NCBI GenBank assembly: GCA_004431415.1 | Contig: QPMI01000425.1 | Location: 55,262-119,261, forward strand | From: Cyanophora paradoxa CCMP329 | Taxonomy: Eukaryota > Plantae > Glaucophyta | Length of the DNA: 64,000 nt | Reading direction: 5' to 3' | In this document: piece by piece, positions 11,280 through 63,945 of the stretch | Layout of the letters: every line of letters starts with the position of its first letter | Numbering within the stretch: the first letter of the stretch is position 1 | Program-made: the position numbers and the translations under genes | The notes under the pieces: model-generated | Seen by the model: only the letters and a program-made list of their open reading frames with translations | Database searches by the model: none | Told to the model about the DNA's origin: nothing

Positions 11280-11285
11280 GGTTTG

Positions 11286-29700: not shown

Positions 29701-32700
29701 TCCCAAATGCTTTGATTCCATCAATTAAAGTGGCTTTTGGAAACAGTTCGTATTTTACATCAAATGCAGAAATCAATAACCAATTCACTATAACAACTCC
29801 TTCCGTAGACAGTATGGCTGCATTTTCCTATCCGCATGTAACAATAGATTGGTCATTAGGATTCACATACTTTGCGATAGGTAAATACAACCAGTCACCA
29901 AGTGTTGTTGATCATCTACGGATAATGAGGACAGAATCACCAAACAGAACTGTTTATTATGGTATCAAGTCAAATACAACACTTGGAATGACAAGTTTTG
30001 TAATATCGGGAGCGCTACAAGCGACCCCTTCTATCACTGTTCCTTCTATGCTAAATAAATGGTATTACACAGACCAAACAATCACCTCCGATTCTTATAC
30101 AGTAGGTTTGAATGGTGTAGATATCCAAACTGTCACAGGGACTAATTATTTGCCTAATTCCAGAGTAAACTTTTTTGGACTTGGACTGACTGTTGGAGGT
30201 AGTATTGCCGAAATTATAGTATTCAACAGAGCATTGACAAATGATGAAAAACGTGATGTGAGGTATTATATTCAACAAATGTATGGGTTTCCAATTACTC
30301 AACCTCTGACATTTTACAGGGGGTTAAAGATCACATCACCTGAGACAGTGATTGATAATCTTACTGTTACAAGTAATGCTAATCTTCCTCATCATCCAAC
30401 ATCAAATGTGGTTCAAGGTTGGATACAAAACCACACACACACGAAAGCGCAAATTACAGATTTCGCCCATACTCACACCAAAGATCAGATCACAGATTTC
30501 GCCCATACTCACACCAAAGATCAGATCACAGATTTTGCCCATACTCACACCAAAGATCAGATCACAGATTTTGCCCATACTCACACCAAAGATCAGATCA
30601 CAGATTTTGCCCATACTCACACCAAAGATCAGATCACAGATTTTGCCCATACTCACACCAAAGATCAGATCACAGATTTTGCCCATACTCACACCAAAGA
30701 TCAGATCACAGATTTTGCCCATACTCACACCAAAGATCAGATCACAGATTTTGCCCATACTCACACCAAAGATCAGATCACAGACTTTGCCCATACTCAC
30801 ACCAAAGATCAGATCACAGATTTTGCCCATACTCACACCAAAGATCAGATCACAGATTTTGCCCATACTCACACCAAAGATCAGATCACAGATTTTGCCC
30901 ATACTCACACCAAAGATCAGATCACAGATTTTGCCCATACTCACACCAAAGATCAGATCACAGACTTTGCCCATACTCATCTATGGGAGCATATCACAAA
31001 TCCTCCATTAACTTTCCCACCTGATTCACATACTCATGATTATTCCGAAATCACAAACTCTAACCACAGACATCCGTGGAACGAAATCGATTTACAACCT
31101 ACTTTCGCCTCAGCAGGTAATGTTATGAATGATGGGACGAATGGTGTGAGTCTCTACCAAAAGATAGACATTGCCGAAAGGTTACAATTAAATGACTATT
31201 ACGTTAATCGAAAAGGAATTGAAGCAGGCACCACAATGGATGGCGAATTATACATTAAACAACCTTCAAGATCTCAAATGGTTTCAGCAGGTGGGGTGGG
31301 GGTTATAGATACCAAACCAGGTCTGTTTTTGACAAGTTATTATAATGATGATATTCCATTAACAGCAGGTTTACCACCACTTCCATTAGATCCAGTGAGT
31401 TATGATGATAAAGACGCCATTTTACAAGTGAACGTTACAGATGTAAGCGCAACCGATGGATCAAGACCGAAAATAATATTTAGTCGCTCGAAATTCAATT
31501 ATGTCCCACTTGTGGGACAACCATATGATGGTCACGGGAAATGTGAGATGGCGTGGATCAAAACATTAGCAGGTGGCGCCCTTGAAGTCAATCAGAGAAT
31601 GGCGGCGAAAAACTTACACAATGAAACCCTTTCAGGTATTGTTACAGATGATTACCTTGAAAGCAAAAATTATGTAGATGATACAGAACTTGCAGCAATT
31701 CGTGAAGATTATGTGACAAAACCAGAACTTCAAGAATATGTGACTGAACCTGAACTTAATGTAGCATTATCTAATTATCTACCACTCAAAGGTGGAACCA
31801 TCACGAGCAACTTGGTTGTGACAAGCAACCTTACAGTTGGAGGAAAAATACAAATGGGAACCGGAAGCTATTTAGAATCTTATCGTGAAAATAAATATCG
31901 AATCACTTCCAATTTTGATCCAGCTTCTAATATTTCAAATTGTCTTTTTGCATGGAAAGCCTCAGGTGTTCACGGTGAATCCGCGTTCAATTCTAATCTT
32001 TTCAATAGAGTCCCAAATGCTTTGATTCCATCAATAAAAGTGGCTTCGGGAAACACTTCATATTTTACATCAAATACAGAAATCAATAACCAATTCACTA
32101 TAACAACTCCTTCCGTAGACAGTATGGCTGCATTTTCCTATCCGCATGTAACAATAGATTGGTCATTAGGATTCACATACTTTGCGATAGGTAAATACAA
32201 CCAGTCACCAAGTGTTGTTGATCATCTACGGATAATGAGGACAGAATCACCAAACAGAACTGTTTATTATGGTATCAAGTCAAATACAACACTTGGAATG
32301 ACAAGTTTTGTAATATCGGGAGCGCTACAAGCGACCCCTTCTATCACTGTTCCTTCTATGCTAAATAAATGGTATTACACAGACCAAACAATCACCTCCG
32401 ATTCTTATACAGTAGGTTTGAATGGTGTAGATATCCAAACTGTCACAGGGACTAATTATTTGCCTAATTCCAGAGTAAACTTTTTTGGACTTGGACTGAC
32501 TGTTGGAGGTAGTATTGCCGAAATTATAGTATTCAACAGAGCATTGACAAATGATGAAAAACGTGATGTGAGGTATTATATTCAACAAATGTATGGTTTT
32601 CCAATTACTCAACCAATCTTAACTCGGGAAACTCTTAATATTGTAGGAAAAGACAGATTAACACTTAGCAATTTGGAGATACCCACACACAATCACACAA

Positions 32701-34115
32701 AAGATCAGATCACAGATTTTGCCCACACACATTCCCGATTAGAGATACCCGATTTTGCACACGTTCACACAAAAGCTGAGATTTCAGATTTTGACCACAC
32801 ACACACATGGAATAGTATCACAGATAAGCCTTTAACATTTACACCTTCACCACATCCACATTTATGGAGTCATATTACGGATAGACCCACCTTATCAGCA
32901 GTTGCAACAAGCGGAAATTACGATGATCTGATAAATAAACCAACATACACTTCACCGACAAATTTTGATGCTACAAGTGGTATTTCCACAGACCGCACAG
33001 GAGATTGGAGAAATTATAGTGGGCAACCATTAACAAATACAGACACTTCGACATTCACATGGCCCGATAACAATTTGGATTGTAGTAGCTGTAAGATGTA
33101 TTGGAATGTTCCAACAGGAATGAAATCATGTTATATCTATTATACGTGTCAGTATGACAGTAGATACTTTGATGTTGTTGGAATTAAACCATCAACCGAT
33201 ACTTATACTCGTTTACGAGTAAATGCCTATGCTCCTGGATATAATTTTGCAGAAGATTTTAAACAGTTTGCTGCAATAAATTGTGAAGGACTTGTTAAAG
33301 TTGGTGTTCAAGGAAGGATAGGAAGAATTTATCTTCCAGGTCCGATTACTGTTGGATGGAGCAAAAACCCCGCTATATCGTCACACAGTGGTTACTTCCA
33401 TTGGGATAATATATACGGAAAGCCAACAGCTTCTACGACTGTCGGTCCTCACTCTCACACAAAATCAGATATCACAGATTTTGCACATTCACACACAAAG
33501 GCAAATATCACAGATTTCGCACACACTCACACTAAATCAGAAATCACGGATTTCCCAATCTTAGACCCATTTGTAGCCAATACGATCACAGGTAACACAA
33601 TTACAGCCAACAATACCATGTATGTGGGATCCGGTCAAATTTACCAACCGAATGCGCCACTTTATTTGGAACAATGGTTCTTCCACAATTCCGCAAATAT
33701 TTACGATAAAACGTTATTATGTCGGGGAAATGCTTACGCAAGGGCATACTATGCAATGGATGAAACAGATAATACAAAGATCGCAAAACTTGTTTCAGAA
33801 CAACGGGTCAATAAAGACCAGTATATACAAACAGGGAGTTTCTCAAAATCTTTAACAATCACAGGTCCAGGTCATTGGGGATTTCCACAGGTTGTCACAT
33901 TCCCAAAAGCATTTGCGGCAGCCCCAGAAGTGGTTCTCAATCTGATACAAGGATATAATGGTGGTTCATATGTATTGGTATATGGTGTCACAAGTTCCAC
34001 AACAACAACATTTACTATTCATGCAACAATTTCGGCAAATTCTGCATTTAATGAAAGCATTGGACTTTTCCACTATCAAATGAGTTATATTGCAACAGGA
34101 AAAATGGTAGCATAG
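23760..34115 (+). CDS. Giant (3451 aa) modular fibre/adhesin-like virion protein
   Basis: Four YLxLxGGTITxxL fibre motifs, each followed by a ConA/LamG-like module ending (AE/CE)xxxxxRxLT-like; HTH fibre repeats; three FxxxFxxxPxV...T.TGF-type lectin-like modules, one at the C-terminus. Confidence 0.8.
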   Translation: MSITNLPFITRETLYLDDGFELSSNITASNVTISSNLVVKDFLLNQSNLEYIDITSNLPFTYGTDNSALVIYHGGSPVAFFGSNFPTVRTFKHEINKARPIPLTAVVEWDPVKYSQSITSNITLTRPHLIDVMGVDLVKEFYSERFTRNERDVAQDLEISGLSIATAANTAGLAVLTGAITITDAIMYLSRDLVPLLDHQFNLGQSNTDAVKKWLNVYAYDGWFDDLHTTNFYSTTSKTSNIILPFNHSVRPSDLPTDERALISYNDFNSNLSRSVSRTETYTVEGYPQQLANGVYVAYVGKPTYTFTWDQLGVTGLESIPTVSLVDHTTYYNPITNNNESNKAFIQNVTSTGFQVSFVINETYNLLIIRNNSLSSEATISFTLTINYISPVFDSKPRVKVYRDLQGSNIVPFSQNFDLGANSLRWNTVYSLSANTCNIVVAGSSATIGELTAPFRKEYLRELYITKSDLPDAISLVLSPTPSISYHNVKDTSNVVQRGSKVFQASEISASTYRYLAGVPANFNFTFETPFVSPPTIEITDTNLYVINNGSTTSINNAPAGYSPFVATNITTTGFTLVGNATVTYALTAYPVGLYFAKFNLSAIPPVSLSPPFTINWKATGTIPRFDPEDRLKIRYPLDVTDLHTTRINGQNFVFNGTNATLIDNRVTNNYFFDSRYINTCNIVIQNTFENRSKTLSVTLPTHSNVSDGFHYYLFNRNYTSYIPYPSETVNMSYPRVTLTSTNADFFGSTDFMTFFAFTSSTDGLLVYYTFRYDAVWTQLDSHPNTDVIEVGDKKYIKTASPWVCTVRLDDRYTPNLNSIGMHSTCNIYVQGAISATKYFEGGNCDAAHRLLSRNGLFESFSGTALPPFIRDTVYDTTCNIWVCRSVSNPPVTKELYKYLSDTYGAITGSSTGNPATAPIVFANAYTAPTSLAGSTEPPPNDPNPNQPNPDPDSKDPPTTNPDPNTPPAMWMHIANGIGYVDAMAGTAFRNLNCNCVGGWMFQICSNVDPTIDPATITFDCNLFAPKTIFSITCNLVNSDVPIIAPIIGASNIYIQKMPVATQDFVSSNYLSLAGGTITGDLTVNDTLEIKNKILIGNNEILRAPLNFLDFDAGGLSQCLLRFNASLDDAWENNVLVFELVNKGNANVIQKLIQSGSVVFKTSGGPNNKPFYDVAETNSFSTFRYSFSSTNAAGYETIDFSGGITIACVIKLRSAEPLEPILQFDGSSSLGSVGQIWSISKGQWGDGFVLNISKLDQSTFRVPLTLDEVDSWTIYDITITSTSVKVGVNAKERQTFSITNGSHLPRNDVKYVYLGSQYSKFDLCEFYCFTRVLTAEELYNLRWYLHQFYGFVEDPTNPIPRDDNKLLIKTQELQVTGMNLATTNGVAALLTEFTTSNVVNGWLNKYTTSNVVEGWIADSEALLDNYLPLTGGTITGNLSVSNQGNTDSKLKIYENTFKLDYLDVSTFNVLSVLNVFVWVRARDNMKDGTIVSGLGNGAGDVWFDNNPETPNFLLGFGNVAGNSTQIKNNGGPNNKPYFNSYPTINFNFSAYNTWGAECELFMSQTSQQHLTVFFVAKFTDTAPPNVENVLSLSYGTTNWSINKWNNGATCYIQVSNGVGAAGLGESTSPSNAKAEITYSEMTTWTLYEVTVSPSTVTFGINGSNRSVANVTNMFPNNLVTESRIGSSTSKQDLAELIVIIKPTTEIVKDNIRSYLLQKYGYPEPLDNPFASDPNKLLLQTNSLRVTGSLIANNLQYTAPAPGGGFIIKDFQTSSSLQDAEITAINAQITQIQESIDSINTNLEPLTTSNIVEEWIAPLTASNVVHEWIAPLTASNVVQEWVAPLTASNVVQEWIAPLTASNVVQEWIAPLTASNVVQEWIAPLTASNVVQEWIAPKADMIAIKDHVSSNYLPLTGGTITSNLSVNGNLAIGSNTLQELNKDYYQITASNDPASSIPNCLFAWKASGVHGESAFNSNLFNRVPNALIPSIKVAFGNSSYFTSNAEINNQFTITTPSVDSMAAFSYPHVTIDWSLGFTYFAIGKYNQSPSVVDHLRIMRTESPNRTVYYGIKSNTTLGMTSFVISGALQATPSITVPSMLNKWYYTDQTITSDSYTVGLNGVDIQTVTGTNYLPNSRVNFFGLGLTVGGSIAEIIVFNRALTNDEKRDVRYYIQQMYGFPITQPLTFYRGLKITSPETVIDNLTVTSNANLPHHPTSNVVQGWIQNHTHTKAQITDFAHTHTKDQITDFAHTHTKDQITDFAHTHTKDQITDFAHTHTKDQITDFAHTHTKDQITDFAHTHTKDQITDFAHTHTKDQITDFAHTHTKDQITDFAHTHTKDQITDFAHTHTKDQITDFAHTHTKDQITDFAHTHTKDQITDFAHTHTKDQITDFAHTHTKDQITDFAHTHLWEHITNPPLTFPPDSHTHDYSEITNSNHRHPWNEIDLQPTFASAGNVMNDGTNGVSLYQKIDIAERLQLNDYYVNRKGIEAGTTMDGELYIKQPSRSQMVSAGGVGVIDTKPGLFLTSYYNDDIPLTAGLPPLPLDPVSYDDKDAILQVNVTDVSATDGSRPKIIFSRSKFNYVPLVGQPYDGHGKCEMAWIKTLAGGALEVNQRMAAKNLHNETLSGIVTDDYLESKNYVDDTELAAIREDYVTKPELQEYVTEPELNVALSNYLPLKGGTITSNLVVTSNLTVGGKIQMGTGSYLESYRENKYRITSNFDPASNISNCLFAWKASGVHGESAFNSNLFNRVPNALIPSIKVASGNTSYFTSNTEINNQFTITTPSVDSMAAFSYPHVTIDWSLGFTYFAIGKYNQSPSVVDHLRIMRTESPNRTVYYGIKSNTTLGMTSFVISGALQATPSITVPSMLNKWYYTDQTITSDSYTVGLNGVDIQTVTGTNYLPNSRVNFFGLGLTVGGSIAEIIVFNRALTNDEKRDVRYYIQQMYGFPITQPILTRETLNIVGKDRLTLSNLEIPTHNHTKDQITDFAHTHSRLEIPDFAHVHTKAEISDFDHTHTWNSITDKPLTFTPSPHPHLWSHITDRPTLSAVATSGNYDDLINKPTYTSPTNFDATSGISTDRTGDWRNYSGQPLTNTDTSTFTWPDNNLDCSSCKMYWNVPTGMKSCYIYYTCQYDSRYFDVVGIKPSTDTYTRLRVNAYAPGYNFAEDFKQFAAINCEGLVKVGVQGRIGRIYLPGPITVGWSKNPAISSHSGYFHWDNIYGKPTASTTVGPHSHTKSDITDFAHSHTKANITDFAHTHTKSEITDFPILDPFVANTITGNTITANNTMYVGSGQIYQPNAPLYLEQWFFHNSANIYDKTLLCRGNAYARAYYAMDETDNTKIAKLVSEQRVNKDQYIQTGSFSKSLTITGPGHWGFPQVVTFPKAFAAAPEVVLNLIQGYNGGSYVLVYGVTSSTTTTFTIHATISANSAFNESIGLFHYQMSYIATGKMVA
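29169..29441 (+). repeat. 7 x 39-bp coding repeat (PLTASNVVQEWIA)
   Basis: Read directly; units differ mainly at synonymous positions. Confidence 0.95.
29606..32614 (+). repeat. Near-identical ~700-bp intragenic duplication (29606-30304 and 31916-32614)
   Basis: Constant 2310-bp offset; the antisense ORFs at 30051 and 32361 are nearly identical. Confidence 0.9.
30432..30971 (+). repeat. 15 x 36-bp coding repeat (HTHTKDQITDFA)
   Basis: Read directly; 540 bp / 36. Confidence 0.97.
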
Positions 34116-34158
34116 AATGTCGTTTATTTTTATTTTTCATAGAGCATGCATACGAAAG

Positions 34159-35025
34159 GCATGTATCTTGCATAGTGGGCGGGGCGCGAGTGGTTCCAGT
34201 GCATTAAATGGAACATTTCGATTGAAGTCGCGAGTGTGTGCAGGTGGGCATTATCGGCATGCTTGCTCATGCACAAGCTTGCTTTAAAAAATATAAAATG
34301 AAATTCGGTTTAACTCTTACGAGTTTTGCTATAACACTCTCGGCATTGATAGTAGAGACCATCCTTTGTGCTTTGTTTTTTATTATACTCGCTTGCAGGC
34401 TTCTCAATCTTGCAGTGCGAGCATATCTTCGATTGCACTTCGATTTTCGGACGCGTTTTTAAGACATTGTGATACAGGTCAAGGTGATAGTCGCGGTCGC
34501 ATTCGATGCATCTTGGAGTCAATGCGACATTACCAGTTTTTAATTTACGCAAACTAAAACACGATGCAGGTCTATCTACTTTGCAGATAGTGCATTGCTT
34601 CCTTTTGGGTAGTGGGAGTTGATTGCTCGGCATCTTTATAGCTAAATAGCGGGAAACCTTTAAGTGGGGATCAACGCATTTTATATGTTGATTTGAGCTA
34701 TCGGTGGGGCTCACCTTGATTTTTCAATTTGGGTAACTGTAAACAGTTTGGAAACGATCGGGAACATTTCGTAAAAATAAGGGTCTTACTGTCCTTACTG
34801 AGAAATCGAGAGAGGGTTTTAGGGCTTACTGAAAATGGTAAGGGATTAGAGAGAAGATTATGTGTAGGTTTTTGTGATTGGTTTCAGTAAGGAGAGGTTA
34901 GATGTTTGAAAAATGTAGTGTGGCTCAGTGCGAATTTGTGATTTTGTGACTGAGATTCGTGATGCTGTAAATGTGCTTATTGAAAATGGTCGCGCGCAAT
35001 TGGTGGGGTCTACCTTGGAGCGAGC
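34159..35025 (-). repeat. Right terminal inverted repeat of element A
   Basis: Reverse complement of 8876-9742, followed by the TSD CGTACA. Confidence 0.95.
34310..34633 (-). CDS. TIR-encoded Zn-ribbon protein, second copy
   Basis: Translation identical to 9268..9591. Confidence 0.75.
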   Translation of the reverse strand: MPSNQLPLPKRKQCTICKVDRPASCFSLRKLKTGNVALTPRCIECDRDYHLDLYHNVLKTRPKIEVQSKICSHCKIEKPASEYNKKQSTKDGLYYQCRECYSKTRKS

Positions 35026-45000: not shown

Positions 45001-48000
45001 TTGCAATCGTGCAACGCGCAGTTCTCATTCCGATGTACTGTCCTTCCGTCGTGCACTGCAAGTTTCGAACTTGAAAATGACTGGCGTTATCATATGGCGG
45101 CCGCACACGATGTTACCTTGGATAACATATTTCCGTGCGGATATTGTGGAGCTGTGCTACCAGATCGTTCAGGCTGGGAAACGCATCGGACATTACAGCA
45201 TCGCGCCACGTTCAATCGTATAGAACGGCGTGCACATGCGCAAGGTGCGAATTATGACTGCGCAAGGTGCATTCCCAGAAACTGTATGCGTATAACAATG
45301 GCTATCGATTGCAGCACGTCAAGTAATGCACCGTAACAACTTGTCCGATACTGTACGACAATCAATGACATCATGCAACGCTGGTACGTCTGCAAATTGA
45401 CAGAGGATTTCTAATCAAGACTTCGAATGAATGTTTATAAATACAGAGCGGAAAGCTGCGAGTCGCAGGCAGCTCGACCACGCAACGAAGCGTGCCCAAC
45501 AAGCGCAAAACGCAGGTATACACTATTTAATTCCAAGCGATATATACACTAACGTTTCGTTTGATTTATCGTGCAGCTCGGCAAGCAACGAATCCACTTC
45601 GCAGTGCTCAATACCAGGCACGCAGTGCCTACAATCGACGTTTTCGCCATTTGGAACAGAACACGAATTTCGACAATGTCCTCAAGAAGTGCGCACTAAA
45701 TAACTGATATCGAAAATATGCATACGTAGTCCGTCGGTCCCGGGCTGATCATGATCATAACGCTCTTTTCAGTTTTGAGCCCTGCCAGTTCTGGAACGAA
45801 ATTGGCAATCCGGTCCTTAAAGAGGCAACAAAGCTCTTTTTCCTAAAACTCTACTGTTTCCGCCGACTGTGCAGTTGTTGCACTGAGTCCCGGCGTGCCG
45901 ACAAGCTTTATCAAGTGAAGTGCAAGTGCGTCTCCGGTGAAGCCGGACACTTGTCGCTTGCACACAGCACAGATTGCCCGTGCAAGGCCACAGACGCTTG
46001 CTGTCACGCGTGTTCTGTGATGCGTCTGCATTGTATACCGGGTGCCCAAGCTGCCGTCGAGTTGTGTCATCGTTGCCACTCCTTCAAATGTTCAACTGAG
46101 CGACCGTTCTGCCCGTTCTCACGCGAGGTGGGTAAATTCGAATTTTCGCCATTCGATACCAACGTTCGCACAATGCACACTGTTTACGTGTACACAGAAT
46201 CGTGTACACTGTGTGGAGGTGGACGATCATACTCGAAATTTATTATCGGATTTGACATTTCCAGAGCTCTTGATGTGCCAGCGCGTCAACAATTACCAGG
46301 TAATATTCTTCTTAATATATATTCTGGATAGGTGTTCGTTAATCAATCTGATGCTTTAAGGCTTCAACCGCATAGTTGATCCATGTGCGTGGTCCCAAGG
46401 GGAAGAACGGGCGCAAACTGGGAGGAGGGCAACTCGGCTCCCAGGGCCGCGTGATCTTCGTGCCATGCAATCCAATCAACAACCTTAAATCGATTTTCCC
46501 ACTACCACCGAGAGGCAACGTCTGCCTGGTAAATCAGCGGAAGCCTAAAGGTGGCGAAACCTGGTACAACCGTGTCAGACTGGACAAGTGCTTTGAAGTA
46601 CTCGAGTGTCTTCGTCATACTACGAAGCACATATACTACCAGGATATCCAGTTGCGGGATCCAAACGACCCAGAGTTGATGGCAGAAATTGACAAGTGGA
46701 ATTTGGGGACAACAGACAATGTCATTAATCCTCGTGATGTCGACGAGTCAGACAGTGATGACTCGGACCGTGATGGTCCAGACTCTACTCCTATGAACCG
46801 TCCAATATGTCCTTCAGTCGCGGTCAATTTGAAAGGGACTTCTCTCAGCACGCTTCCTGTCAACTCTGGACGCATAATACGTGCTCATTCGCCAGAAGCC
46901 GATGTGTGTTCATTTTTGTCTGTTTATCCAACAGGTGCAAAGCATTCCAGACGACCACTAGCACTCTTAAGCTTTCAGATCCTGATTGGTGCTTTACAGG
47001 AACACATGGGTTACATGATCCAGCAAGACCTATCCCGCTATCTGCTCGTGAATTCTTTTCACACAGATGCCTTGCATCTTCATCAGCGCCCTTCCAGCGT
47101 GATCCAGCCGCTCTCCTGAATTCTGTTTCGATCATTTTGGATGATGATGCATGGCGTGGATTTAACTTTGTGCGAGACCACATCGTCAACCCATCTTCCC
47201 GCGACATCCTTGCGGCACACGAACTGCACGAGGGTGAGGCATTGACGGTGGCAGAAGCGCTCAAGCTCCTTGACTGCATTGTGGACGACTATTCACTCGA
47301 CGCTCTAACCATCCGCAACCGTTGTTATCGCACGATGACCCGAAATGTTCGTGTTGGCTCGTGCTGTTTTAATGTGCTTTGAATATTGAATCGCGTGCGG
47401 GCACAGGTGCGCGGAACTGCAGCGTATTGGACCTCTGCAAAAAATAAACTTCACAGCATGTTCACGACAGTGGGCTTCCCCCATATTTACATGACGCTCT
47501 CCAGCGATGATCTTCACTGGCCTGACCTCCTCCGGGCAATTGATCCAGTCAAATTTCAGAGCAGCTCCGACGTCCTTGAATTCACGAAGAATCGGGACGC
47601 TGTGGTTAAACTGCTGAACGACAACCCAGGGATTGTGGCTGAGCATTTCGACGAGCGAATTCGTGCAATGCTGGATTTATTCCAATCCGACGCTGGCGAG
47701 GTCTTGTTTGGTTGGCCCGTTGTCGACTTCTTTATCCGGTGCGCATTTGATGTCGCTGGCGCTTATAATTAATTTAAATTCCCATATTCGTGGCTGCCTT
47801 AATCGATTATAATTTATGCTCGCATACGTAGGTACGAAGTCCAGAGCCGCGGATCTTTGCATGCACATCTTGTGTTGTGGCTGGGAGAGCGGACTCGTGA
47901 TGGTGTTGTTTCTCCTCCTCCAAACTTGGACCCAGAGGATCCTGCGTTCAATGCCGAGCAAGTTTGTGCATGGCTTGATATGGTTGTCAAGACAGAGGTG

Positions 48001-48623
48001 CGTCTATTGCTATACATATAATTAGAAATTAAGAAATCTATTTTTGAACCCCCTCCCTATGGACAGCAACCTCGCACGGATGGGCCATTCGCACAACCAT
48101 GGGCTACCCGGCGACTGGAGGACTACGTTGCACGCTTCAATCGACACAGGCACTCCCACACATGTCAGATCGATCCTGCGGCATCATTCAAGTACCGTCG
48201 GCAACGTAAACTCCCTACTGTCGATGAGAATGCAGAGCTTCACGACCCGCTCCCCGAATCAGCACGCAACAATGTCCTTGAAGACCAGCTGGCTGCTATG
48301 GAGAAAGCAGCTCCAGCCGAGCATATTGCGCGTTCAGCACGGATCGCAAGATTTATGGCAGAGTACAAGGAACGCTGTAAATGTCGCTTTGGGTTTCCAC
48401 AGGTTTTCGCTTCGAAGACTCATCTACGAAGTTCCCACGAGGAACGGTTTCTGTGTCGTGGTGACAAGGAGGTCATCTTCATGCGGCACACGCAGGAAGA
48501 CAGGTACACCAACAATTTTCACGACATTATTATACAGCTCTGGCAAGCAAACATGGACATTCAAGTGGTTACCAACCCCTACAAGATTGCGTCCTACATC
48601 CTGGGCTACATGACAAAGGATGA
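45001..48623 (+). mobile_element. Helitron/Helentron Rep(-helicase) gene, intron-containing, truncated by element B
   Basis: Two C2H2 fingers; DUF6570-like GQLGSQGRVIFVP...VRLDKCFEVL; VRGTAAYW...GFPHIYMTLSSDDLHWPDL; spliced HUH motif FFIR/YEVQSRGSLHAHLVLW (intron 47739-47831); CRFGFP; WQANMDIQ...YILGYMTKDE. The 5' boundary is approximate. Confidence 0.88.
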
Positions 48624-48708
48624 ACACATATGTATAAACTTATTTAAATCCCTCCGCTTCGCGCTTCGCGCTCCGCTCCTGGATTTAAATAAGTTTATAC
48701 ATATGTGT
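48624..48708. other. Terminal hairpin: perfect 28-bp stem with a 29-nt GC-rich loop
   Basis: ACACATATGTATAAACTTATTTAAATCC (48624-48651) pairs with GGATTTAAATAAGTTTATACATATGTGT (48681-48708). Confidence 0.92.
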
Positions 48709-49032
48709 CAAAATTAATACTAAAATACGTATTTATCGATTAAATTCTTTAACTTTTTATGCAAACTTTGTATAAATTAATGCAAACTTTGTATTAAAAA
48801 TGAAAAACGCGTTTAACTTTATGCATATTTACGATTGAATCAATTGATCTTATATCGATTGATTATGTTCTTTGTCGATTACATATAAAACTGCGATTAA
48901 TTTGCATTAAACTACTTAAAGATCGATATAATCGCGATTAAATTGCATAAATTCGCATAAACTCGATATATCTCTCTGGTATTGAAGTAGACCACCGCCC
49001 ATTCTGTATCGAAAAACGCAAAAAATGTCCCA

Positions 49033-49280
49033 GAGTTGCATTGTGTCCAATTGAACAATCGATGAGATTGCTGATGTACATTTTTGCACCGAAAAAGTGT
49101 CACAGAGTTGCATTATCTCCAATTAAACAATCGATTAGATTGCGGGATTTTCTATTGGAATATATCGGAACTGCATTATGTCCAATTAAACAATCGATGA
49201 GATTGCGGATGCATATTTTAGATCGAAAAAGTGTCACAGAGTTGCATGGTCTCCAATTGAACAATCGATTAGATTGCATA
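49033..49280. repeat. 4 degenerate ~64-72-bp sub-terminal repeats
   Basis: TGCAT(T/G)..TCCAATT(G/A)AACAATCGAT(G/T)AGATTGC four times. Confidence 0.85.
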
Positions 49281-49390
49281 TGTTCTATAAAACAGAATAA
49301 ATGAATTCAAGTGTGACAGGTAGTATTCAAATGATATTCAGTAAGAGATAGTTTTGTTTTTGAGAAAGTCAGTAAGAGGGGTGGAATGTC

Positions 49391-49826
49391 TGTGACGCCT
49401 GTGACGGCTGTGACGCCTGTTTTCAGAAGTCTGTCATTTTTGAAAATTTTAAAAAGTTTGAAAGTAGGTGTCACAGGCGTCACAGGCGTCACACTCAATT
49501 AAATTAGGTGTCACAGCGAAATTGCAGACGATATCCAGTAAGACAACTTCGCATTTTCAAAAAGGTTGATTAATGGATAGTGTTTTGTAGGTGTCAGAGG
49601 TGTCACAAGACGGATTTCAGTAAGACAAGAATATATTCTCGAAAATCTCAGTAAGAGAAAGAGATTCCATTTTTAATTGGGTGTGACGCCTGTGACGGCT
49701 GTGACGGCTGTTTTCAGAAGTCTGTCATTTTTGAAAATTTTAAAAAGTTTGAAAGTAGGCGTCACAGGCGTCACAGGCGTCACAGTCAATTAAAGAGGCG
49801 TCACAGTCAATTAAATAGGTGTCACA
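49391..49826. promoter_or_regulatory. Two copies of an iteron-like palindromic module (putative replication origin)
   Basis: Three 9-bp TGTGACG(C/G)C units, a ~50-bp AT-rich spacer, then inverted GG(C/T)GTCACA units; at ~49391-49492 and ~49682-49783. Confidence 0.6.
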
Positions 49827-52292: not shown

Positions 52293-53666
52293 ATGGATAT
52301 TACTTCGACCCTCCAACGTCTTTCTCTGAAAGAAGCTCTAACAACCCCGGAAGAAGCCAAGGCGTTCTTCTTGGACAACTCTCTCATGCTTGGTCTTGAA
52401 TCCAAGTCGAAGCCAGTTCTTGTTGTTGTGAACCCAAGCAACACTTTCGAGAATAATGCTGGAAATCGCATTTCTTTCAAGCTCCCTCGCTACAATTTCT
52501 GTGGAAAACTCGAACTTGCGTTTGACCTTCCAGCTGTCACTTTTGCTGGTGATACCGACCTTGTTCGCAATGGATACGTTCGCCCAGTTGGTGCTCTTGT
52601 CTCTCGACTTGAAATTACCTATGGATCTTACACCTTCCATGTGCCTTCTGATTTCCTCGCTCATTTCCCTCTTATCTATTACAGTGAGGATCAACTCGCC
52701 AAGAAGAAGCGTTCAATGGGAATGGTTCATGGTATCCCTGCCCATGGAACCAACCGACTTGGTGGGTCATTTTTCACTGAAATCCCAGTCCCATGGCTAA
52801 ACCACTACCTACCTCTTGGTGCTCTCTCAGGAGAAATGGTGGTAACTGTCTGGTTCAAGGATGCTGGAAAGGGTTATGTTGAGACTTCTTATGGTGGTCG
52901 TGCTCTTCCTGTTGTTGGTGGAACAGCTGCTGATAAGACAGAGGATGATGGACTTGGTGCTACTGCTAATGCTACTCTTGCCCATGTTGGTCAACAAATC
53001 ACCACTTTTGGAATTGGTGCAACAACAACCCCCGAAATTAAAGTCACTTCTCCTCGTCTTTACATGCATGCTATTAATGTTTCTGATGAACTGTTTGCTA
53101 CTGTCATTGAGAAGGTGAAGACCACTGGTATGGCTATTCCTGCTCTGGATATTGGTTTTGTAGACAGTGTCAATTTTGCTGCAAAAGGCAATGCTCAACC
53201 AAATCGTATTAACCTGTCACAGATCTCTGGTCTTGTCTATGGTCTTCTTGTTTCAGTTCGTGATGCCGCAGGTATTGATGGTTTCAATGGTTCCCACAGT
53301 GTCCTAAAAACGCATGCTAACTCAAAAGACATTACTTTCACTGTTGAAATTAATGGTCAACGTCTCTATGCTACTGAGCCCATCCCTCTCCTCAAAGGTG
53401 CCGAATTAATTGCGGATGCCTTCAAGTGCTCAAATATGGACAAGGTTGCAGACAAATATGTCCTCAGTGGTCTACCATTCTGTGTTGATGGAGAGAAAGC
53501 GATTCGCAACATTGCCCAGTCTGGCTATGTTGATCTCACGAACTCCTCCTCTTCTTTCCTTACTCTATACATGCCTTCTGACCAGACAATCACAGTTAAT
53601 GTTCGTGCTCTCATGCACAGTTTCATTATTGTTGACAAAGATGGTCTTCGTCGCATTAATCTGTAA
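52293..53666 (+). CDS. Putative double jelly-roll major capsid protein
   Basis: Homologous to 19972..21420 (MDITSTLQRLSLK vs MDPTTSLSRLTLK); same gene context. Confidence 0.78.
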   Translation: MDITSTLQRLSLKEALTTPEEAKAFFLDNSLMLGLESKSKPVLVVVNPSNTFENNAGNRISFKLPRYNFCGKLELAFDLPAVTFAGDTDLVRNGYVRPVGALVSRLEITYGSYTFHVPSDFLAHFPLIYYSEDQLAKKKRSMGMVHGIPAHGTNRLGGSFFTEIPVPWLNHYLPLGALSGEMVVTVWFKDAGKGYVETSYGGRALPVVGGTAADKTEDDGLGATANATLAHVGQQITTFGIGATTTPEIKVTSPRLYMHAINVSDELFATVIEKVKTTGMAIPALDIGFVDSVNFAAKGNAQPNRINLSQISGLVYGLLVSVRDAAGIDGFNGSHSVLKTHANSKDITFTVEINGQRLYATEPIPLLKGAELIADAFKCSNMDKVADKYVLSGLPFCVDGEKAIRNIAQSGYVDLTNSSSSFLTLYMPSDQTITVNVRALMHSFIIVDKDGLRRINL

Positions 53667-53728: not shown

Positions 53729-54485
53729 ATGTCTGACGTTCCCGAATTTAATGCTGCTGAGATGATTAAACCCCTTTTCGCGTATTAGCAATCGGAAAAA
53801 GCGCGACGGGCAAGTCAGAAGCCGTAAAATATTGGCTAAAACAACTTCACGATGCGAAAAAGTTAGATGTTGTTCTTGTTATAAGTGGACATCATTCAAT
53901 CATTTTTGGGATGATGTCGCAACATTACAGCTCGGTAAATGGGATGCGCCTTACATCGCTAAACTTCTCGATGAAAGACAAGAGAAAATTGAGAAAGGAG
54001 AACCCGTTAATCAATTATGTGTTGTTCTCGATGATCTTATAGACAATGAGATTGTAGACCTTACCCGTGATAAAATTATTGGATCTCTGTATTCGCGCGG
54101 CCGCCACTCGGCGATTACAATTTTCTGCATAACTCAGAAACTGCGTAAGGTTTCTTCAACCATTCGCGTCAATTCGGATTATGCAATGTTCCTCAGTGCC
54201 GCCAATCGCAAAGAACTGGAAGCCATTGAAGAAGAATACAATATCATGCGGGATAAAGACGCTTTCTATAAGATGTTTGAGGAATACGTTCACTCCTATC
54301 AGTTTCTCATTTGGAGTTCTGCGAATTATTCGGTGGAATACTACGTTGATAAAGCGGAACTCGTTAAAGACTTTAAGTTTCCTCGGTTCCACAGGAAGCC
54401 CAAAAAGAAAGAGGACGAATTACCACCTCCACAGAAAGAGGAAGCCCCAAAGAGGTCAAGAGTGGTGTTCATTCGAATAAACTGA
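53729..54485 (+). CDS. A32-like packaging ATPase with two apparent frameshifts near the 5' end
   Basis: MSDVPEF start; IGKSATGKS (Walker A) in a second frame; VVLDD, GRH, TQKL and IRVNSDY in ORF 53832..54485. Confidence 0.85.
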
Positions 54486-56153: not shown

Positions 56154-58517
56154 ATGAACGCTGCCGCCAAGAAATCCCTGAAACGCCTTGTTGAATGGCT
56201 TCGTGAAGACGATGTCCTGTCTGAGAATATCGTTATTCCTGTTGATCCTGATACCAAAAAGCCACTTTTCGCTCATAAAGACGGAACCTGGTCTTGGGAT
56301 AAATTCGATGAAGCCCTGAAATCCGGTAAATATACTGCTTGGGGCATTCTCGCTCGTAATATCCTGGTAATTGACTTCGACCAAGAGGAGGATTTCGCCA
56401 AATTCGAGGAGCAATTCCCTGATGATTTCGGTGGTGTTAATCCTCTTGCTAAAACCAAAAAAGGATATCATGCATTCTTCGCTCGACCTGCTGAATTCGA
56501 CACCATTAAGATCTGGGATAAAGCGGGTGCATTCAAAGGAAACCCCAAGATCGACTGCAAAACGATTGCATCCACTGGGACTGCTGGGGTGATTAATGTT
56601 TGCCCCAGTCCCAACAAAACATGGATCAGAGAGCCATGGGCATCTGAGTGTGAGTTAAATGAACCCACTGCTGAGTTGCAAAAGTGGATTGTTGAAAACT
56701 ACGAATTCCCCAAAGGTGCACATTCTTATTATGCAAGGTGCGCTGAGGAGAATTTGCAGAAACATATTCTTTCTAAACTCGAAGAATTCGGTTTCATCTT
56801 GCCCACAATCATCAATGAGACCAAGATGGGATACAATTTCACTGCTGAGAACAAAGGTCTGGTCTGTCCCTGCTGCAAGGGAAGCCATGACTCGAACAAT
56901 TGGTATATTGTTCAAGGGAAGGAGAAGGACAAATATATTGTTTCGAGTTACAGTGCAAACTGCAAGAAGCGACTTATCACAATTCGTGTGAAGGAAGAGA
57001 CAGATGCGAATATCGAAAATCTGATTGATCGGTCTGCTGGATCTGATGGTGCCCATTATGATGTTGCACAGGTTGCCTATCTTGTTCTGCAAGACAAATA
57101 CAAGTATTCCAACAAGACCTGGTTCAAGTTCAATGATGTATGTGGGATTTGGGAGATGGATGAAACTGGGAAGCGAATCTTTCTCTGTTTGAGCTGCAAG
57201 GTCTGTCCAGTTTATCTTCAACGTTCTGTTCAACTCGCACAGAGAGCTCTTCGTGATGAAGAGAACCGCAATTCCTTGGAGGAAAGGTCAAAGATTCTGC
57301 TGGGAATTGCTAAGAGCCTCAAACAGACTACATACAGAACTGCACTTATGTCTGATCTTTCAGTTCTGTTCAGTGACAAGACCTTTTTCGAGAGACTTGA
57401 TACTGTTCCCAACATCATTGGATTTACAAATGGTGTATTTGACTTGAACTCCATGACTTTTCGAAAGGGACTCCCAGATGATATGGTGAGCAAGACTGTT
57501 GGCTACGATTATACCACAGAAATCGACCAAGAGAAGGTTGCAAAGATTAAATCCATCTATGCAGATATTATTGAATCGGATACAGACCGCGAATTCATGC
57601 TGGGATTAATCGCCTATGCCCTGAGTGGTTTGACAGAAAATCAGAGATACACTTGCTGGACTGGAATTGGAGCAAATGGGAAATCACTGCTCCAAGAGTT
57701 GGTGAAAGACACATTTGGTGAGTATTATGGGTCACTGGACATGACATATTGGACTAAACCCAAGAAGAGTTCGTCAGAGGCTTCCCCAGAACTTGCTTGC
57801 ATTCTTGGTAAACGAATTGTTTTCAGTAATGAAGCAGAAGATGGTGATATGCTTCAACTGAACAAAATCAAACAGGTTACTGGTGGGAATGAGATGAAGG
57901 TTCGAGCTCTTTTCAAAGATCTTGTTACATTCATTCCCATGTTCCAGTTGTTCTTGTCCACAAATGACAACCTGGGAATCAGTAAACCAGATGCAGCAAT
58001 CCAAAGGCGAATTATCTACTACCGATTCGAAAATGTCTTCAAGGTCGATCCTCAGCCTGGTGAGAAGAAAGCAGATACCACTCTAATGCGCCTAATGAAG
58101 AATGATGACGATTATAAAATGGCGCATATGTCCATTCTCCTGGAAATGTGGAGAACCCATTCTCTCAATGAATTCGTCACCAAACCACCCCAGTCCATTG
58201 TTGATCAAGGTGTTGAATATTTCAATGAGAATGACAAGATTGGAGAATGGATTCGTGAGAGTTATGAACTCACCAAGAGTCAAGGGGATTTCGCCACAAG
58301 TGAGTCCATTATCAGTCACTTTAAGATGGATCACATGGGCAAATCTGATGAGAAAATCACAGAATGCACTATCTTGAAGAGACTTCGCGAAGTCTTTAAT
58401 GTGAAGGCTGAGAGAAAGCGAGTCAATGGTGTTCTTGCTCGTGGCTACTTTGGGATCAAAAAGAAGCATAGTCGCAAGTTGGTGGATGACAGTGATGTTG
58501 AAGGTGGGGATGAGTAA
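56154..58517 (+). CDS. Prim-Pol (AEP) primase fused to a D5-like SF3 helicase
   Basis: LVIDFD and TKKGYHAFF (Prim-Pol); CPCCKGSH Zn motif; IGFTNGVFDL (D5_N); GIGANGKS Walker A; KRIVFSNE Walker B; LSTN sensor; IQRRI. Confidence 0.92.
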   Translation: MNAAAKKSLKRLVEWLREDDVLSENIVIPVDPDTKKPLFAHKDGTWSWDKFDEALKSGKYTAWGILARNILVIDFDQEEDFAKFEEQFPDDFGGVNPLAKTKKGYHAFFARPAEFDTIKIWDKAGAFKGNPKIDCKTIASTGTAGVINVCPSPNKTWIREPWASECELNEPTAELQKWIVENYEFPKGAHSYYARCAEENLQKHILSKLEEFGFILPTIINETKMGYNFTAENKGLVCPCCKGSHDSNNWYIVQGKEKDKYIVSSYSANCKKRLITIRVKEETDANIENLIDRSAGSDGAHYDVAQVAYLVLQDKYKYSNKTWFKFNDVCGIWEMDETGKRIFLCLSCKVCPVYLQRSVQLAQRALRDEENRNSLEERSKILLGIAKSLKQTTYRTALMSDLSVLFSDKTFFERLDTVPNIIGFTNGVFDLNSMTFRKGLPDDMVSKTVGYDYTTEIDQEKVAKIKSIYADIIESDTDREFMLGLIAYALSGLTENQRYTCWTGIGANGKSLLQELVKDTFGEYYGSLDMTYWTKPKKSSSEASPELACILGKRIVFSNEAEDGDMLQLNKIKQVTGGNEMKVRALFKDLVTFIPMFQLFLSTNDNLGISKPDAAIQRRIIYYRFENVFKVDPQPGEKKADTTLMRLMKNDDDYKMAHMSILLEMWRTHSLNEFVTKPPQSIVDQGVEYFNENDKIGEWIRESYELTKSQGDFATSESIISHFKMDHMGKSDEKITECTILKRLREVFNVKAERKRVNGVLARGYFGIKKKHSRKLVDDSDVEGGDE

Positions 58518-58584: not shown

Positions 58585-58725
58585 TGTGTGACAGCTGTGA
58601 CACCTTTTTAATTGAGTGTGACGCCTGTGACGCCTGTGACGCCTACTTTCAAACTTTTTAAAATTTCAAAAATCTACAAACCTCTGAAAACAGGTGTCAC
58701 AGGCGTCACAGGCGTCACACCCAAT
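58585..58725. promoter_or_regulatory. Third, inverted copy of the iteron module, directly downstream of the primase-helicase
   Basis: TGTGACGCC x3, AT-rich spacer, GG(C/T)GTCACA x3; the spacer is similar to the reverse complement of ~49419-49467. Confidence 0.6.
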
Positions 58726-59121: not shown

Positions 59122-62100
59122 ATGCCCCGCCAATCCAATAGAATCATCAAAGAGAAAAAAAACGAAATACTCGGTCTTTTAGGAACCCTTTTAGTCACTG
59201 GTGATATCACAGAATTCGAATATGATCGCCAGGCAGCAATCCTGGATAGGAGACCAAGATTATCTCAACTCACAGAAATTACAAATCGACTGTATGATCG
59301 TTTTGAGAAAATGGAGGAATTCAGGGATGAAGGTTTAAGGTTGGGAACAATTGAACCCGAGATTGAAGATGGGGAAGCAATGAACAAAGCATATTCCTGG
59401 TTAACCTATCGAGCAAGAGGTGAGGTTATCCAAGATGGGATTGAATTCTTGGAGAGAATTGCACCCAATCTACCACAGAGACTCAGACAGAAACTCCAAG
59501 ACCTGAGAGCAATTAAAACTCGTCTCACATTCATCTGTAAATTCACCAAAGTGAGTGATCCAAGGGTGTGGATCACCAAATTCATTTACAGTGATTACTT
59601 TGTCATCACAAGATCACGAAATATTGATGTTGAACTGCGAAATGCCCTTCAATCCATGCAGGAGCAGATGATGCAGGTGGACAGTTACAGACTGGATCGC
59701 ATTGAGATGCTGAGAGTGGTAATAATGTCTTATGCTCCTGTGGGTGGTTGCTTCTTCTCAACACCTGAGTGGATTGGATCAAAGAGAGCAACTGTGAATG
59801 TCAAGAATATTGATGGTCAAGACTGCTTCAAGTATGCAATCTTGGCTTACCTGCACCGAAATGATATTAATAAACACAAGAGCAATGAACCCAGCCAGTA
59901 TAGAAGATGGTTAAACGAACTCAATTTCGAGGGCATCCAATTTCCAGTTGCCTGTGATGCAGAGGTGATTGATCGATTTGAGGAGCAGAACCCTGAACTG
60001 AGTATCAACATTTATGGGGCAGATAATCAAGCACAGTGCTTCTATCCTCTTCACCAATCCAGCAACCCCAGGAGAAAGACCAAGATTAACCTTTTATTAA
60101 TCGAAAACGAAGAGGATGATAGAGGGCATTATATCACCATCATGTCTCTGAGTAGACTTCTGAAAACCACCTTTGATAAAGCCCATGATGGTCGCATTTA
60201 TTACTGTGAGACCTGTCTGTCTCGTTTCAGAACTCAGGAGAAGCTGGATGTTCATATAGAAGCGAATCGCTGCATTGATTGGAGGGAGAGCAAAGGTAAA
60301 TGCCCAAAATCTGGAAGTCACATTGCATTTGGGCTTCAACATCTTCGCAAAACTGTGTGGCTTCCCACTATCTGCTATGTGAAAATGGATAGTCACTCGG
60401 TTCCAATTGATGAGAACCGCAGCAAGAGAGAGGTAAAATCGGTTTCTCTAACAGTTGTGATGGGGGATGAGGTGATCTCTCATTATTTCGAGGGATCAGA
60501 TACACTTGGTGCTCTGTTTACCACTCTCACAGAGATCAGACCCCAAGTAATCCGCACTCTATTCACCAATATTCCAATGCACCCACTCACAGAAGAGCAG
60601 AAAGCACAATACAAGATCACTAAACACTGTTATATCTGTGCTGAACGATTTACCCATGAGAATTTCCCAGTGAGAGACCATTGTCATCAATCAGGAGCAT
60701 TTATTGGGAAAGCATGTCGAAACTGCAACCTCCACAGGAGAATCTCAAAGCAAACGAAAGTAGCAATTGTGGTGGATCACATGGATGAATGTGGACACGA
60801 AATATTCCGCAAAATTGCACAGCAAGATGATAAACTTCGTGTTGAGATCCTGAGCAAGAATTTCGATCAATACCTCTCCCTGCAATGGGGCATGTGGAAA
60901 TTCATAGATGCTTCGCACTTCATGGACTTCCAGGCAGTGGATGCAAGTGATCTAATGGGTAAATTCCAGACTTTCCGAGAATTGGCGTTTTCCCAATATG
61001 GATTAGATCCTGCCCATTATGTTTCGGCTCCTGGATTATCCTGGGATGCAATGCTAATTTACACCAGAGCAAAGATCGAGCAGATCAGTGATGTAGGGCA
61101 ATACGAATTTATTGAGAGGGCAATTCGAGGTGGGTTTGCTACAATGCCTACTCGATATGCAAAGGTGGAAAACCCAGATGACCATATAGTTCTCTTGGAT
61201 GCAAATAATCTGTATGGTTATGCTCTCATTCAAGAACTGCCCATTGGAGATTTTCGTTGGGAAGATGTCACAGAGGCACTTAAAGAGACCCAAGGACGAA
61301 GTGCCTTTATTGAAGTAGACCTGGAATACCCACAAACTCTCACAGATCATTACGATTTTCCACTTGTAGTAATAAAGAACAGTCACCACCGAAATGCTGG
61401 GTGGGTATCAACAAAAACTACTGATATCACAGGTGAGAAGATAAGCAAAGACCCCAAACTCACAGCAACATTCTCGCCCAAAAACAACTATGTGATTTCC
61501 CAACCTCTCTTGATCTATCTTGTGAGCAAAGGTATTATAATCACGAAGGTTCACAGGGTTCTCTCATTTGCAACCTCTGCATTTATGAAGAGTTATATTG
61601 ATCTAAATACGAAACTGAGGCGCCAATCTATGTCCAGATTCGAGAGTGACTTCTTTAAATTAATGAACAATGCAATCTATGGTAAATGCTCGAATCATGC
61701 AGGGGTCGCTCTGTGGTTAAGATTGCTAACAGTGAGAAACTCTGCAAGAAATATGCTGCAAGTCCACTCATCAAGGCAACCAATGTATTAACGAAAAAGC
61801 TGTTGCCTTTGAGATGTACTCAAAGCATGTTCACTTAGATAAACCTGTTGCAATTGGTGCTTTGTGCTGGATTTCGCGAAACTCCATAATAGCAGGTTCT
61901 TTATGATGTGGTGAGGAGAACTTGGGAAACAGCAGAGCTACTATTCCATGATACAGATTCTTTCTGTCTACTGCTGCATACAAATGATCTAAATAATGAG
62001 ATGAAGCGAATTTCTGACACCTGGATTGCAGTAATTATGATACTGCCACCCTCTCTATGATAGGAGAAATCGCTTGATTCCAGGTAAATATAAAAACGAG

Positions 62101-62389
62101 TTTCCAATGCAAAGATTGTGGAGTATGTAGGTCTGAGATCGAAACTCTATGCTTTCAGAACTGAGACCTTTGATAAAATAAGATGTCTGGTACTCCTCAA
62201 AGAGGTTCACTTTGATGATTTCAAGAGATGCCTGTTTGAAGGCATCACCAAAACAGTAGCAGTAGTAAACAAGCGAAGACAAGACCACAACCTATATGAT
62301 TGGAGAGCAGAAGGGTGGCTCTAAACCAACTCGATAGCAAAAGGAAGATATTAGACGATGGAATTCACAGCATTCCATTTGGGCTCTAA
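59122..62389 (+). CDS. Polinton-type protein-primed family B DNA polymerase; frameshifted after ~61690
   Basis: vOTU-like NIDGQDCFKYAIL...GHYITI; EndoVII-like CYIC...VRDHCH...CRNCNL; YGLDPAHY; DANNLYG; KLMNNAIYGK; FHDTDSF and LDSKRKILDDGIHSIPFG in shifted frames. Confidence 0.9.
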
Positions 62390-62570: not shown

Positions 62571-63945
62571 ATGCCTTCTACACAAATAGGATTGAGACAA
62601 CCACCAAGAATTGTGAGAAAAGAGGCAATTGAAGATCGAGGAATATTCTGCCATCACATTCCAGTGGAGGAGAAGAGCAGTCGAATATTAAAAAGATCAG
62701 AGATGGTCAAGCAATTAATCCAGAGACACTCCCAGCTGAGACAGCACCAAAAGAGTCGAAGATTGCTAAGAAGTTCTATGATCCCAGGACAGGCTACAAG
62801 GGATTTACTGCAATGAGACAGGAACTACCAGAGGAGAACTACAAGAAGATGAGAATGGTATGATAAGCAGGAGGTTGTCCAAATTAATGCACCCACCCTA
62901 TCTCGAAAAGAGATCCATGATTCCAATTAGGCAACCCTTGATACCTATGTATGATCTGCTCTTCTTTCCTGCATACAAAAGCAGAATGATGGTTATGATA
63001 CATTTATGAGTGCAATGGATCAACCCTGAGAACAGGGTTCATATTCAATGAGAGACAAAAGTGCTCTACTACACTTGCAGCATTCAAGCAACTTGAACAG
63101 AGAGTCCCCAGACCAATTGTTCGCATTCAGAGTGACAGTGGAAGCGAATTTACCAATGTTATTCACAGATTATTTGGGAACAAATTCATTGAGCATCAAC
63201 TAAGTGATGTTGCAGATCACAGAACCCAAGGTCGATTGAAGCCTTTAACAGACAGATCAAGAGATTGATCACAAACTACTGCATTGCAAATAATACTGCA
63301 CGATTTTTTGATGTGTTGGGTGATATTGAGTATAATTATAATAATACCATTCACTCTGCAACAAGAGAAAACCAGCAGAGACCACAGAAGCCCACTACAA
63401 AGAGATTGTGAATATGGAGGATCAGAGATTCAAGAAATCGATTGAGTATCTTGATGCTCTGAAACCTGGAATGTTTGTGAGAGTGAAAGTTGAAAAGAAT
63501 CCATTTGCAAAGCAGGGAGTGAATTGGTCTCGAATTGTTTATAGTGTGGAGGCAGAGAGGGCTTCAAGTTCAGAATCAGAAGTCCCAGTGGTGAGATAGT
63601 TGATGGTAGATTCGCTTTTCATGAACTGCTGCCCATTAAAGGTGTTGAGTATCATGAAACTCCCACAGTGGATGCTCTTGAACAGGCAAAAGAGGAAGCC
63701 AGGGTTGATTCAGCAATCAGAAAGGAGGGCATAGAAAAGCAAGTGAAGTACCAAAAGAACCCCTCACAGAAGCAAGAGCACAAAAGAAGGGAGAGTAGAG
63801 AAAGAATTAAAGAAGTTGACCATAGCAGGAACCCAGAAATTATCAGAAGTTAACAGTCAGAGTGGTATAATGACTTTTCAACCACCAAGAAACATATACT
63901 GCACCCAAACTCGATTAATTAACGAAGTGGTCAGAGGAAATAGAT
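62571..63945 (+). pseudogene. rve integrase, multiply frameshifted (decay or assembly error)
   Basis: Fragments IQSDSGSEFT, IEAFNRQIK, YNYNNTIHSA and VRVKVEKNPFAKQGVNWSRIVY; N- and C-terminal similarity to the element A integrase (RIVRK; VNSQ; YTAP). Confidence 0.85.

Follow-up and report, generated by a model that had tools for sequence, protein, structure and literature searches.

A long palindrome with three GNA mini-hairpin motifs at the probable left tip of an integrated Polinton-like virus in Cyanophora paradoxa

A Polinton-like virus integrated in the genome of Cyanophora paradoxa CCMP329 (element B) very probably begins with an 85-nt palindrome, which forms its left tip at the junction where the element interrupts a host Helitron Rep gene. 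The loop of the palindrome carries three GNA mini-hairpin motifs, all on the strand that has its 3′ end at this terminus. Our leading explanation, which we hold at somewhat less than even confidence, is that the palindrome is a fold-back telomere, in which the single-stranded 3′ end would fold onto itself to prime the synthesis that completes it. All coordinates refer to the window, that is, the whole stretch of 64,000 nucleotides analysed (contig QPMI01000425.1), which also contains a sister virus, element A.

Results

The palindrome and its loop

The palindrome (48624-48708) consists of a 28-bp stem free of mismatches and a 29-nt loop (Table 1). An earlier note had claimed such a perfect stem for these 85 nucleotides, and the claim is borne out by the sequence, by shuffling and by folding statistics. 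Among stems with loops of up to 100 nt it is the longest perfect one in the whole 64-kb window. Across 100 dinucleotide shuffles of 48624-64000 the longest stem per shuffle averaged 10.4 bp and never exceeded 15 bp, compared with the 28 bp observed. The folding z-scores of the hairpin were -11.5 on the minus strand and -10.1 on the plus strand, and none of 200 shuffles folded equally well. No second copy was found in the 64-kb window, the exact stem pattern had no matches in IMG/VR, and an Rfam search with the hairpin returned no family at threshold, the microRNA matches being far below it.

On the minus strand the loop reads as the earlier note wrote it, with GCGGAGC at 48676-48670 followed by GCGAAGC at 48669-48663 and again at 48662-48656. 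The GCGNAGC motifs are confined to this strand, whose 3′ end is the terminus, and the complementary strand has none. Three such motifs were reached by 2 of 20,000 dinucleotide shuffles of the loop, a control that does not model tandem repetition, the loop being a 7-bp tandem repeat. GNA loops alone form mini-hairpins of this type, which melt at 76 °C (GAA) or 73 °C (GGA), resist exonucleases and bind SSB poorly (Kimoto and Hirao, PMC13037366). A nearest-neighbour model favours another fold of the loop, at -30.2 versus -21.9 kcal/mol for the form with three mini-hairpins. Since the standard energy model prefers this other fold, the three-mini-hairpin form is adopted from the published work and not from computation; according to the same authors, current parameters fail to account for mini-hairpin stability (PMC13037366).

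Triple GCGRAGC arrays were surveyed elsewhere, in three phage contigs and in 80 of at least 119 metagenome stretches. No closing stem among the 90 arrays of these 83 loci exceeded 8 bp, and tblastn of nine A and B proteins against the 83 loci gave no match. In all three phage contigs (L001-L003; G001-G003) the array lies shortly behind a T7-type terminase gene, a thyX gene or both, and this region may lie close to the end of the genome. Arrays with short closing stems at three further loci (L012, L019 and L026) adjoin sequence that, by eye, is like the 3′ end of a tRNA; arrays in such a position are possibly a mark of integrative elements.

The junction with the host gene

Homology to Helitron Rep proteins ends at Glu201 of the 48022 frame (codon 48622-48624), at the first base of the stem, and the window sequence passes directly into the stem. 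All three homologues continue with Pro after this position. Because Rep homology stops at Glu where the homologues go on with Pro, the junction is placed at 48624-48626. The GC content drops from 50% before the hairpin to 31% behind it. Placement of the hairpin at the terminus of B, as the earlier note had it, is thus supported. The 85-nt palindrome is flanked by GGATGA on the left and CAAAAT on the right, with no flanking direct repeat. GGATGA had been put forward as the expected 6-bp target-site duplication; it stands as one candidate, and the register of the junction equally allows GATGAA and ATGAAC.

Identity with a Helitron 3′ hairpin was considered and rejected. Helitron 3′ hairpins are short and GC-rich, and lie just before the 3′ end of the element, after the helicase gene. 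The present stem has a GC content of 21% and interrupts the Rep gene at a point where the homologues continue.

Table 1. Features of the terminus, of element B and of element A in the window
Feature	Position	Strand	Details
Broken host Helitron Rep gene, cut by B	47383..48624	+	Helitron_like_N, E 5.6e-14
Candidate 6-bp target-site duplication	48618..48625	+	GGATGA, GATGAA or ATGAAC by junction register; 6-bp length inferred from element A
Outer arm of terminal palindrome	48624..48651		28 bp, 21% GC; first 1-2 bases possibly host-derived
Loop	48652..48680	-	29 nt, 72% GC; three abutting GCGNAGC mini-hairpin motifs
Inner arm of terminal palindrome	48681..48708		pairs with outer arm
Four degenerate 62-nt direct repeats, subterminal non-coding region of B	49010..49283		
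Iteron-type palindrome 1	49391..49493		three 9-bp TGTGAC-type repeats, AT-rich core, three inverted repeats
Iteron-type palindrome 2	49682..49784		95% identical to palindrome 1
B major capsid protein, predicted double jelly-roll	52293..53666	+	nearest relative Cyanophora paradoxa, 59%
B A32-type packaging ATPase	53766..54485	+	Pox_A32, E 2.7e-05; 38% to A's ATPase; frame broken near start
B Prim-Pol/D5-type primase-helicase (AEP-S3H)	56154..58517	+	open frame, 787 aa
Iteron-type palindrome 3	58616..58720		about 100 bp behind primase-helicase stop codon
B family B polymerase	59122..62288	+	frame break near 61690
B retroviral-type (rve) integrase	62729..63881	+	fragments in several frames; homologous to A's
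Comparison element A	8876..35025		867-bp identical terminal repeats, CGTACA duplication, plain 5′-GCTCGCTCC ends, polymerase-SF1 helicase fusion
CAGTAAG clusters	7436-7627, 9016-9110, 34791-34885, 49339-49847, 58575		hold 21 of the 24 occurrences in the window, together with the A remnant

Genes of element B

Element B encodes a capsid protein predicted to be a double jelly-roll and an A32-type packaging ATPase, the pair of proteins by which it is placed among the Polinton-like viruses. The structural model of the capsid protein, of low confidence (pLDDT 54), matches PBCV-1 capsid proteins with a best E of 7e-15, and the Atlas matches Capsid_N clusters at 0.98, a recognition below the threshold of the tool. 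Only two relatives of this protein were found among 1.84 billion representatives. Two further B genes are homologous to neighbouring capsid-region genes of A, and their place in the gene order suggests a minor capsid role. Several reading frames of B are broken, possibly by assembly errors; the break in the polymerase gene reflects either decay or an assembly error. The window ends at 64000, before the right end of B, and the hairpin is known from one end of one copy. Searches by capsid, primase-helicase, A's integrase and the polymerase pair found no loci related to A or B.

The B polymerase was compared with the homologues listed (120 of 1125 found). The Asp and Glu of ExoI, kept in all 119 other homologues listed, are missing from B and from P0003, its nearest relative. 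Both have also lost about 90 residues ahead of exonuclease motif III, and have a segment of 21 aa where the median in the other homologues listed is 115. In its exonuclease B departs from the canonical polinton pPolB (TP-vOTU-EXO-PALM), which has active motifs I-III. The vOTU Cys and His, the Asp-His-His-Asn of the endonuclease VII domain and polymerase motifs A and B are all kept. Exonuclease loss accompanied by helicase gain has been described before (10.1101/2024.03.18.585575).

The terminal-protein domain of the polymerase is altered in the loop that carries the GSGW-type motif in 94 of the 119 homologues listed. This motif is absent from B, whose loop is shorter and reads VDSY, with Asp, as in P0003, where 107 of the 119 listed have Ser. 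From the description given in 10.1101/2024.03.18.585575, the Ser of the GSGW loop would be the linking residue. The linking residues described by Krupovic et al. all lie near Gly or Pro, and neither residue is found near Ser188 of B. Structure prediction gives the terminal-protein fold at high confidence (mean pLDDT 88). In the model Ser188, in a DSY context common to B and P0003, falls between helix 2 and strand 4, in the loop that holds linking residues. The idea that the terminal protein is dead was dropped, given this position of Ser188 and the kept fold. The model of the domain resembles Y-family polymerase domains by weak matches (best E 1.3e-3), a resemblance that has been predicted for the terminal-protein domain (10.1101/2024.03.18.585575).

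Iteron-type palindromes as candidate origins

Three iteron-type palindromes were found in B, two of them within 1.2 kb of its tip. Their pattern occurs at three places in the window and in none of 100 shuffles. A pattern drawn from them matched five IMG/VR contigs, all of bacterial viruses and representing about three independent groups. Each of the five matches lies downstream of a D5, Prim-Pol or VapE-type gene, at 0.1 kb or less in three and at 1.9 and 3.2 kb in the other two, distances that carry no control. In SaPIs the origins are iterons directly behind primase-helicase genes (PMC7581432). We regard the palindromes of B as putative origins for its primase-helicase. Together with that enzyme they point to an internal start of replication, which would leave a linear end to be finished.

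Element A and its surroundings

The capsid proteins of A and B are 33% identical and their ATPases 38%. On sequence grounds the two are members of one virus family with different replication genes. The helicase of A's polymerase-SF1 helicase fusion was identified by Pfam, and its polymerase motifs were read by eye. A ends in 5′-GC...GC-3′ and its end forms no stem like that of B, which agrees with the earlier note; the note's view of AG...CT as the usual ends does not describe the norm in this family. Only short motifs are common to the terminal regions of A and B. End type and replication genes thus differ together between A and B, and the co-variation proposed earlier stands to this extent, on a sample of two. 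Derivation of B's loop from the terminus of A was considered and found weak, as 3.6-6.5% of GC-matched controls score as well.

A 58-aa N-terminal segment is common to the B polymerase (59122-59295) and the A polymerase-helicase (16997-16824), with 31% identity and a pairwise E of 0.001, the rest of the two proteins being unrelated. The motif CAGTAAG occurs 24 times in the window, and 21 of these occurrences are in the terminal regions of A, of an A remnant and of B, or beside the third iteron palindrome of B; it is possibly a shared protein-binding site. The remnant is a solo A-type right end (6271-7690), about 82% identical, which ends 5′-GCTCGCT like A; five tandem GGCGAAGCC mini-hairpin repeats accompany it on the minus strand at 6172-6252.

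A also encodes an S-adenosylmethionine decarboxylase (10514-10906, E 1.4e-11) and a fibre-like protein of 3451 aa (23760-34115) with internal repeats of 36 and 39 bp. The fibre-like protein has PTR and C-terminal H_lectin domains, a layout reported only from a Cyanophora virus (PMC12220804); this layout and the Cyanophora paradoxa relative of the B capsid protein point to a glaucophyte alga as the likely host. A divergent histone H3-like gene with short introns, read by eye, lies about 100 bp to the left of A (8213-8773). GC-rich repeats of the host, with periods of 149 bp and roughly 350 bp, occupy 1-6000 and 40788-43230 and gave no tRNA or Rfam match.

Discussion

How the end of B might be completed

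Fold-back priming is the explanation that we favour, although all of its enzymatic steps are ones that we infer. The primase-helicase would fire the internal iteron origins, and replication from these would leave a 3′ overhang. The folded 28-bp stem would then supply a paired 3′-OH next to unique template, the GNA mini-hairpins would shield the loop, and the proofreading-less family B polymerase would extend the folded 3′ end. A nick opposite the stem, for which the endonuclease VII domain of the polymerase and the integrase are candidates, would reopen the hairpin to give the extended palindrome, the form that the integrase would insert.

We prefer fold-back priming mainly because the arms are AT-rich and free of mismatches, which suggests that one arm was copied from the other. 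It is also supported by the presence of the GNA motifs on the strand that has its 3′ end here (a one-in-two coincidence), by the position at the junction, by the iteron palindromes and by the loss of exonuclease residues in B and P0003. Elements of Halocafeteria with terminal palindromes preferentially use non-pPolB replication genes, which lends further support (bioRxiv 10.64898/2026.07.28.741278). Several points count against it. The terminal-protein fold is kept, with Ser188 in the linking loop and an intact vOTU Cys and His, and Mavirus, which has an exonuclease-less pPolB and an S3H helicase, likewise retains the terminal-protein domain (10.1101/2024.03.18.585575). The hairpin comes from one end of one copy, and the iteron matches are bacterial, from about three independent groups. 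If the loop were inverted in each round, mini-hairpins confined to one strand would be lost from half of the ends. The tip of B starts with an ACAC repeat, and protein-primed ends carry short repeats, which this one resembles.

The earlier note had also suggested that the excised genome may have fold-back ends, but had not weighed protein-primed patching, which the retained terminal-protein domain of B keeps open. Patching of the Streptomyces type is the main and a strong rival, even if we think it rather unlikely to be the answer. The folded 3′ overhang with its GNA loops would act as a protein scaffold, the terminal-protein domain would prime the missing 5′ strand, and the loop would never invert. 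Such a role fits the terminal-protein fold, the position of Ser188 in a DSY context that P0003 also has, the kept vOTU catalytic residues and the confinement of the GNA motifs to the 3′ strand, and Streptomyces telomeres do use internal origins and G:A-closed hairpins on a 3′ overhang (PMC4513846). It fits less well with the shorter loop, with the absence of the GSGW-type motif of most homologues listed and of Gly or Pro near Ser188; moreover, patching would seem to need no mismatch-free, AT-rich stem of 28 bp. The same arms would also fit a single recent event, and the palindrome could be the one-off product of fold-back or template-switch repair, at integration or at a later break, the real end of B then lying in or behind the loop. 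Accidental annealing is named as an alternative by the authors of the Halocafeteria study, but in their material such tips recur in every complete member of five subtypes (bioRxiv 10.64898/2026.07.28.741278). The terminal 10-13 nt of A resemble part of B's loop (9/10 with a gap), a likeness that is weak, was noticed post hoc and has a score reached by the 3.6-6.5% of GC-matched controls given above. Three GNA motifs inside the loop are not what one would expect of chance, and we consider a one-off origin improbable.

The tip could also be a protective cap, or a signal for integrase or packaging, with no role in priming. The exonuclease resistance and poor SSB binding of GNA mini-hairpins (PMC13037366) would suit a cap, triple GCGRAGC arrays recur in unrelated DNA (three phage contigs and at least 119 metagenome stretches), and the Halocafeteria palindromes are associated with particular integrases as well (bioRxiv 10.64898/2026.07.28.741278). 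No array among the 90 surveyed has a closing stem of more than 8 bp, however, so the 28-bp stem of B needs a reason of its own, and we give this explanation a low probability. No higher do we rate the possibility that a very small inverted-repeat element of separate origin, or an artefact of assembly, coincides with the junction by chance. MITEs have short inverted repeats with a spacer, a layout that counts for such an element, and the several frame breaks in B, if they are assembly errors, would count for an artefact. Against both, the hairpin abuts the break in the host gene with no intervening bases. It is present as a single copy in the window, without a direct repeat around the 85 nt and without an Rfam family at threshold, which speaks against the independent MITE that the earlier note had named among the refuting outcomes. 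The sequences flanking the hairpin are different and unique, unlike those of a fold-back read chimera.

B bears on the question of how Polinton-like viruses with a primase-helicase complete their ends. It supplies a defined 85-nt substrate, candidate origins and two candidate enzymes, and its plain-ended sister A, in the same window, is a natural control. A global survey of tips is called for in the Halocafeteria preprint (bioRxiv 10.64898/2026.07.28.741278), and palindrome screens with a gap limit of 10 nt would overlook tips like that of B.

Comparison with known systems

The terminus had been described as parvovirus-like, and the likeness of shape holds: in autonomous parvoviruses, too, a long stem at the 3′ terminus carries small loop hairpins, the 'rabbit ears' (PMC4513846). 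The likeness does not extend to the virus: B exceeds 15 kb, has a predicted double jelly-roll capsid and encodes a packaging ATPase. Pfam scans detected no HUH Rep in the reading frames covered, B being incomplete here; the adjacent HUH-type Rep is that of the interrupted Helitron. In SaPIs, as in B, short iterons are repeated immediately behind the gene for a primase-helicase (PMC7581432), but SaPIs are bacterial satellites, and B has two further iteron copies near its end.

Mavirus and the EMALEs have an exonuclease-less pPolB, an S3H helicase and an rve integrase (10.1101/2024.03.18.585575), as does B, and in EMALE04 the terminal repeats change along with the version of the primase/helicase (PMC10945749). 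B differs from them in its PLV-type capsid, in its polinton-type polymerase with endonuclease VII and in the fusion of AEP to the helicase. The portions of these two sources that were searched make no mention of a terminal hairpin.

With Streptomyces telomeres B has in common an encoded terminal protein, internal origins (putative in B) and a folded 3′ end with G:A-closed triloop hairpins, which in B are recognised from their motifs (PMC4513846). It differs in its one long perfect stem, its B-family polymerase, its capsid and its integrase. Neither Tap nor Tpg appeared among the families matched in the Pfam scans of the B frames. A Streptomyces-like plan in a eukaryotic virus is conceivable but doubtful: a phage-type primase-helicase would fire internal iteron origins, a proofreading-dead polymerase would have taken on the completion of the ends, working on a folded 3′ overhang with three GNA mini-hairpins, and ends, origins and enzymes would be swapped as one module between sister viruses.

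The closest parallel is found in Halocafeteria seosinensis, and the preprint on its elements is the sole description of terminal hairpins in these viruses that we found in the literature covered, subscription journals lying outside it. The main texts of PMC10120064, PMC12220804 and PMC12721341 contain neither 'hairpin' nor 'palindrom'. In Halocafeteria, palindromes stand beside the duplication in all complete members of virophage subtypes 1, 2, 5 and 6 and of PLV subtype 4; they are tied to non-pPolB replication genes, and a hairpin-priming model has been proposed (bioRxiv 10.64898/2026.07.28.741278). Like these elements, B is integrated, has an rve integrase and carries its palindrome at the tip beside the host junction, and the same model would apply. 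Their example is a palindrome of 52 nt, and gaps of up to 10 nt were allowed in their screen, so the structured 29-nt loop of B falls outside it. B also retains a pPolB, with motifs A and B intact, beside its AEP-S3H, and its host belongs to an unrelated lineage; GNA mini-hairpins and iteron origins are not mentioned in the accessible part of the preprint (bioRxiv 10.64898/2026.07.28.741278). Palindromic tips tied to replication genes are thus already known from that work, and what B adds is a long loop with three GNA mini-hairpin motifs, iteron-type candidate origins and a polymerase without proofreading.
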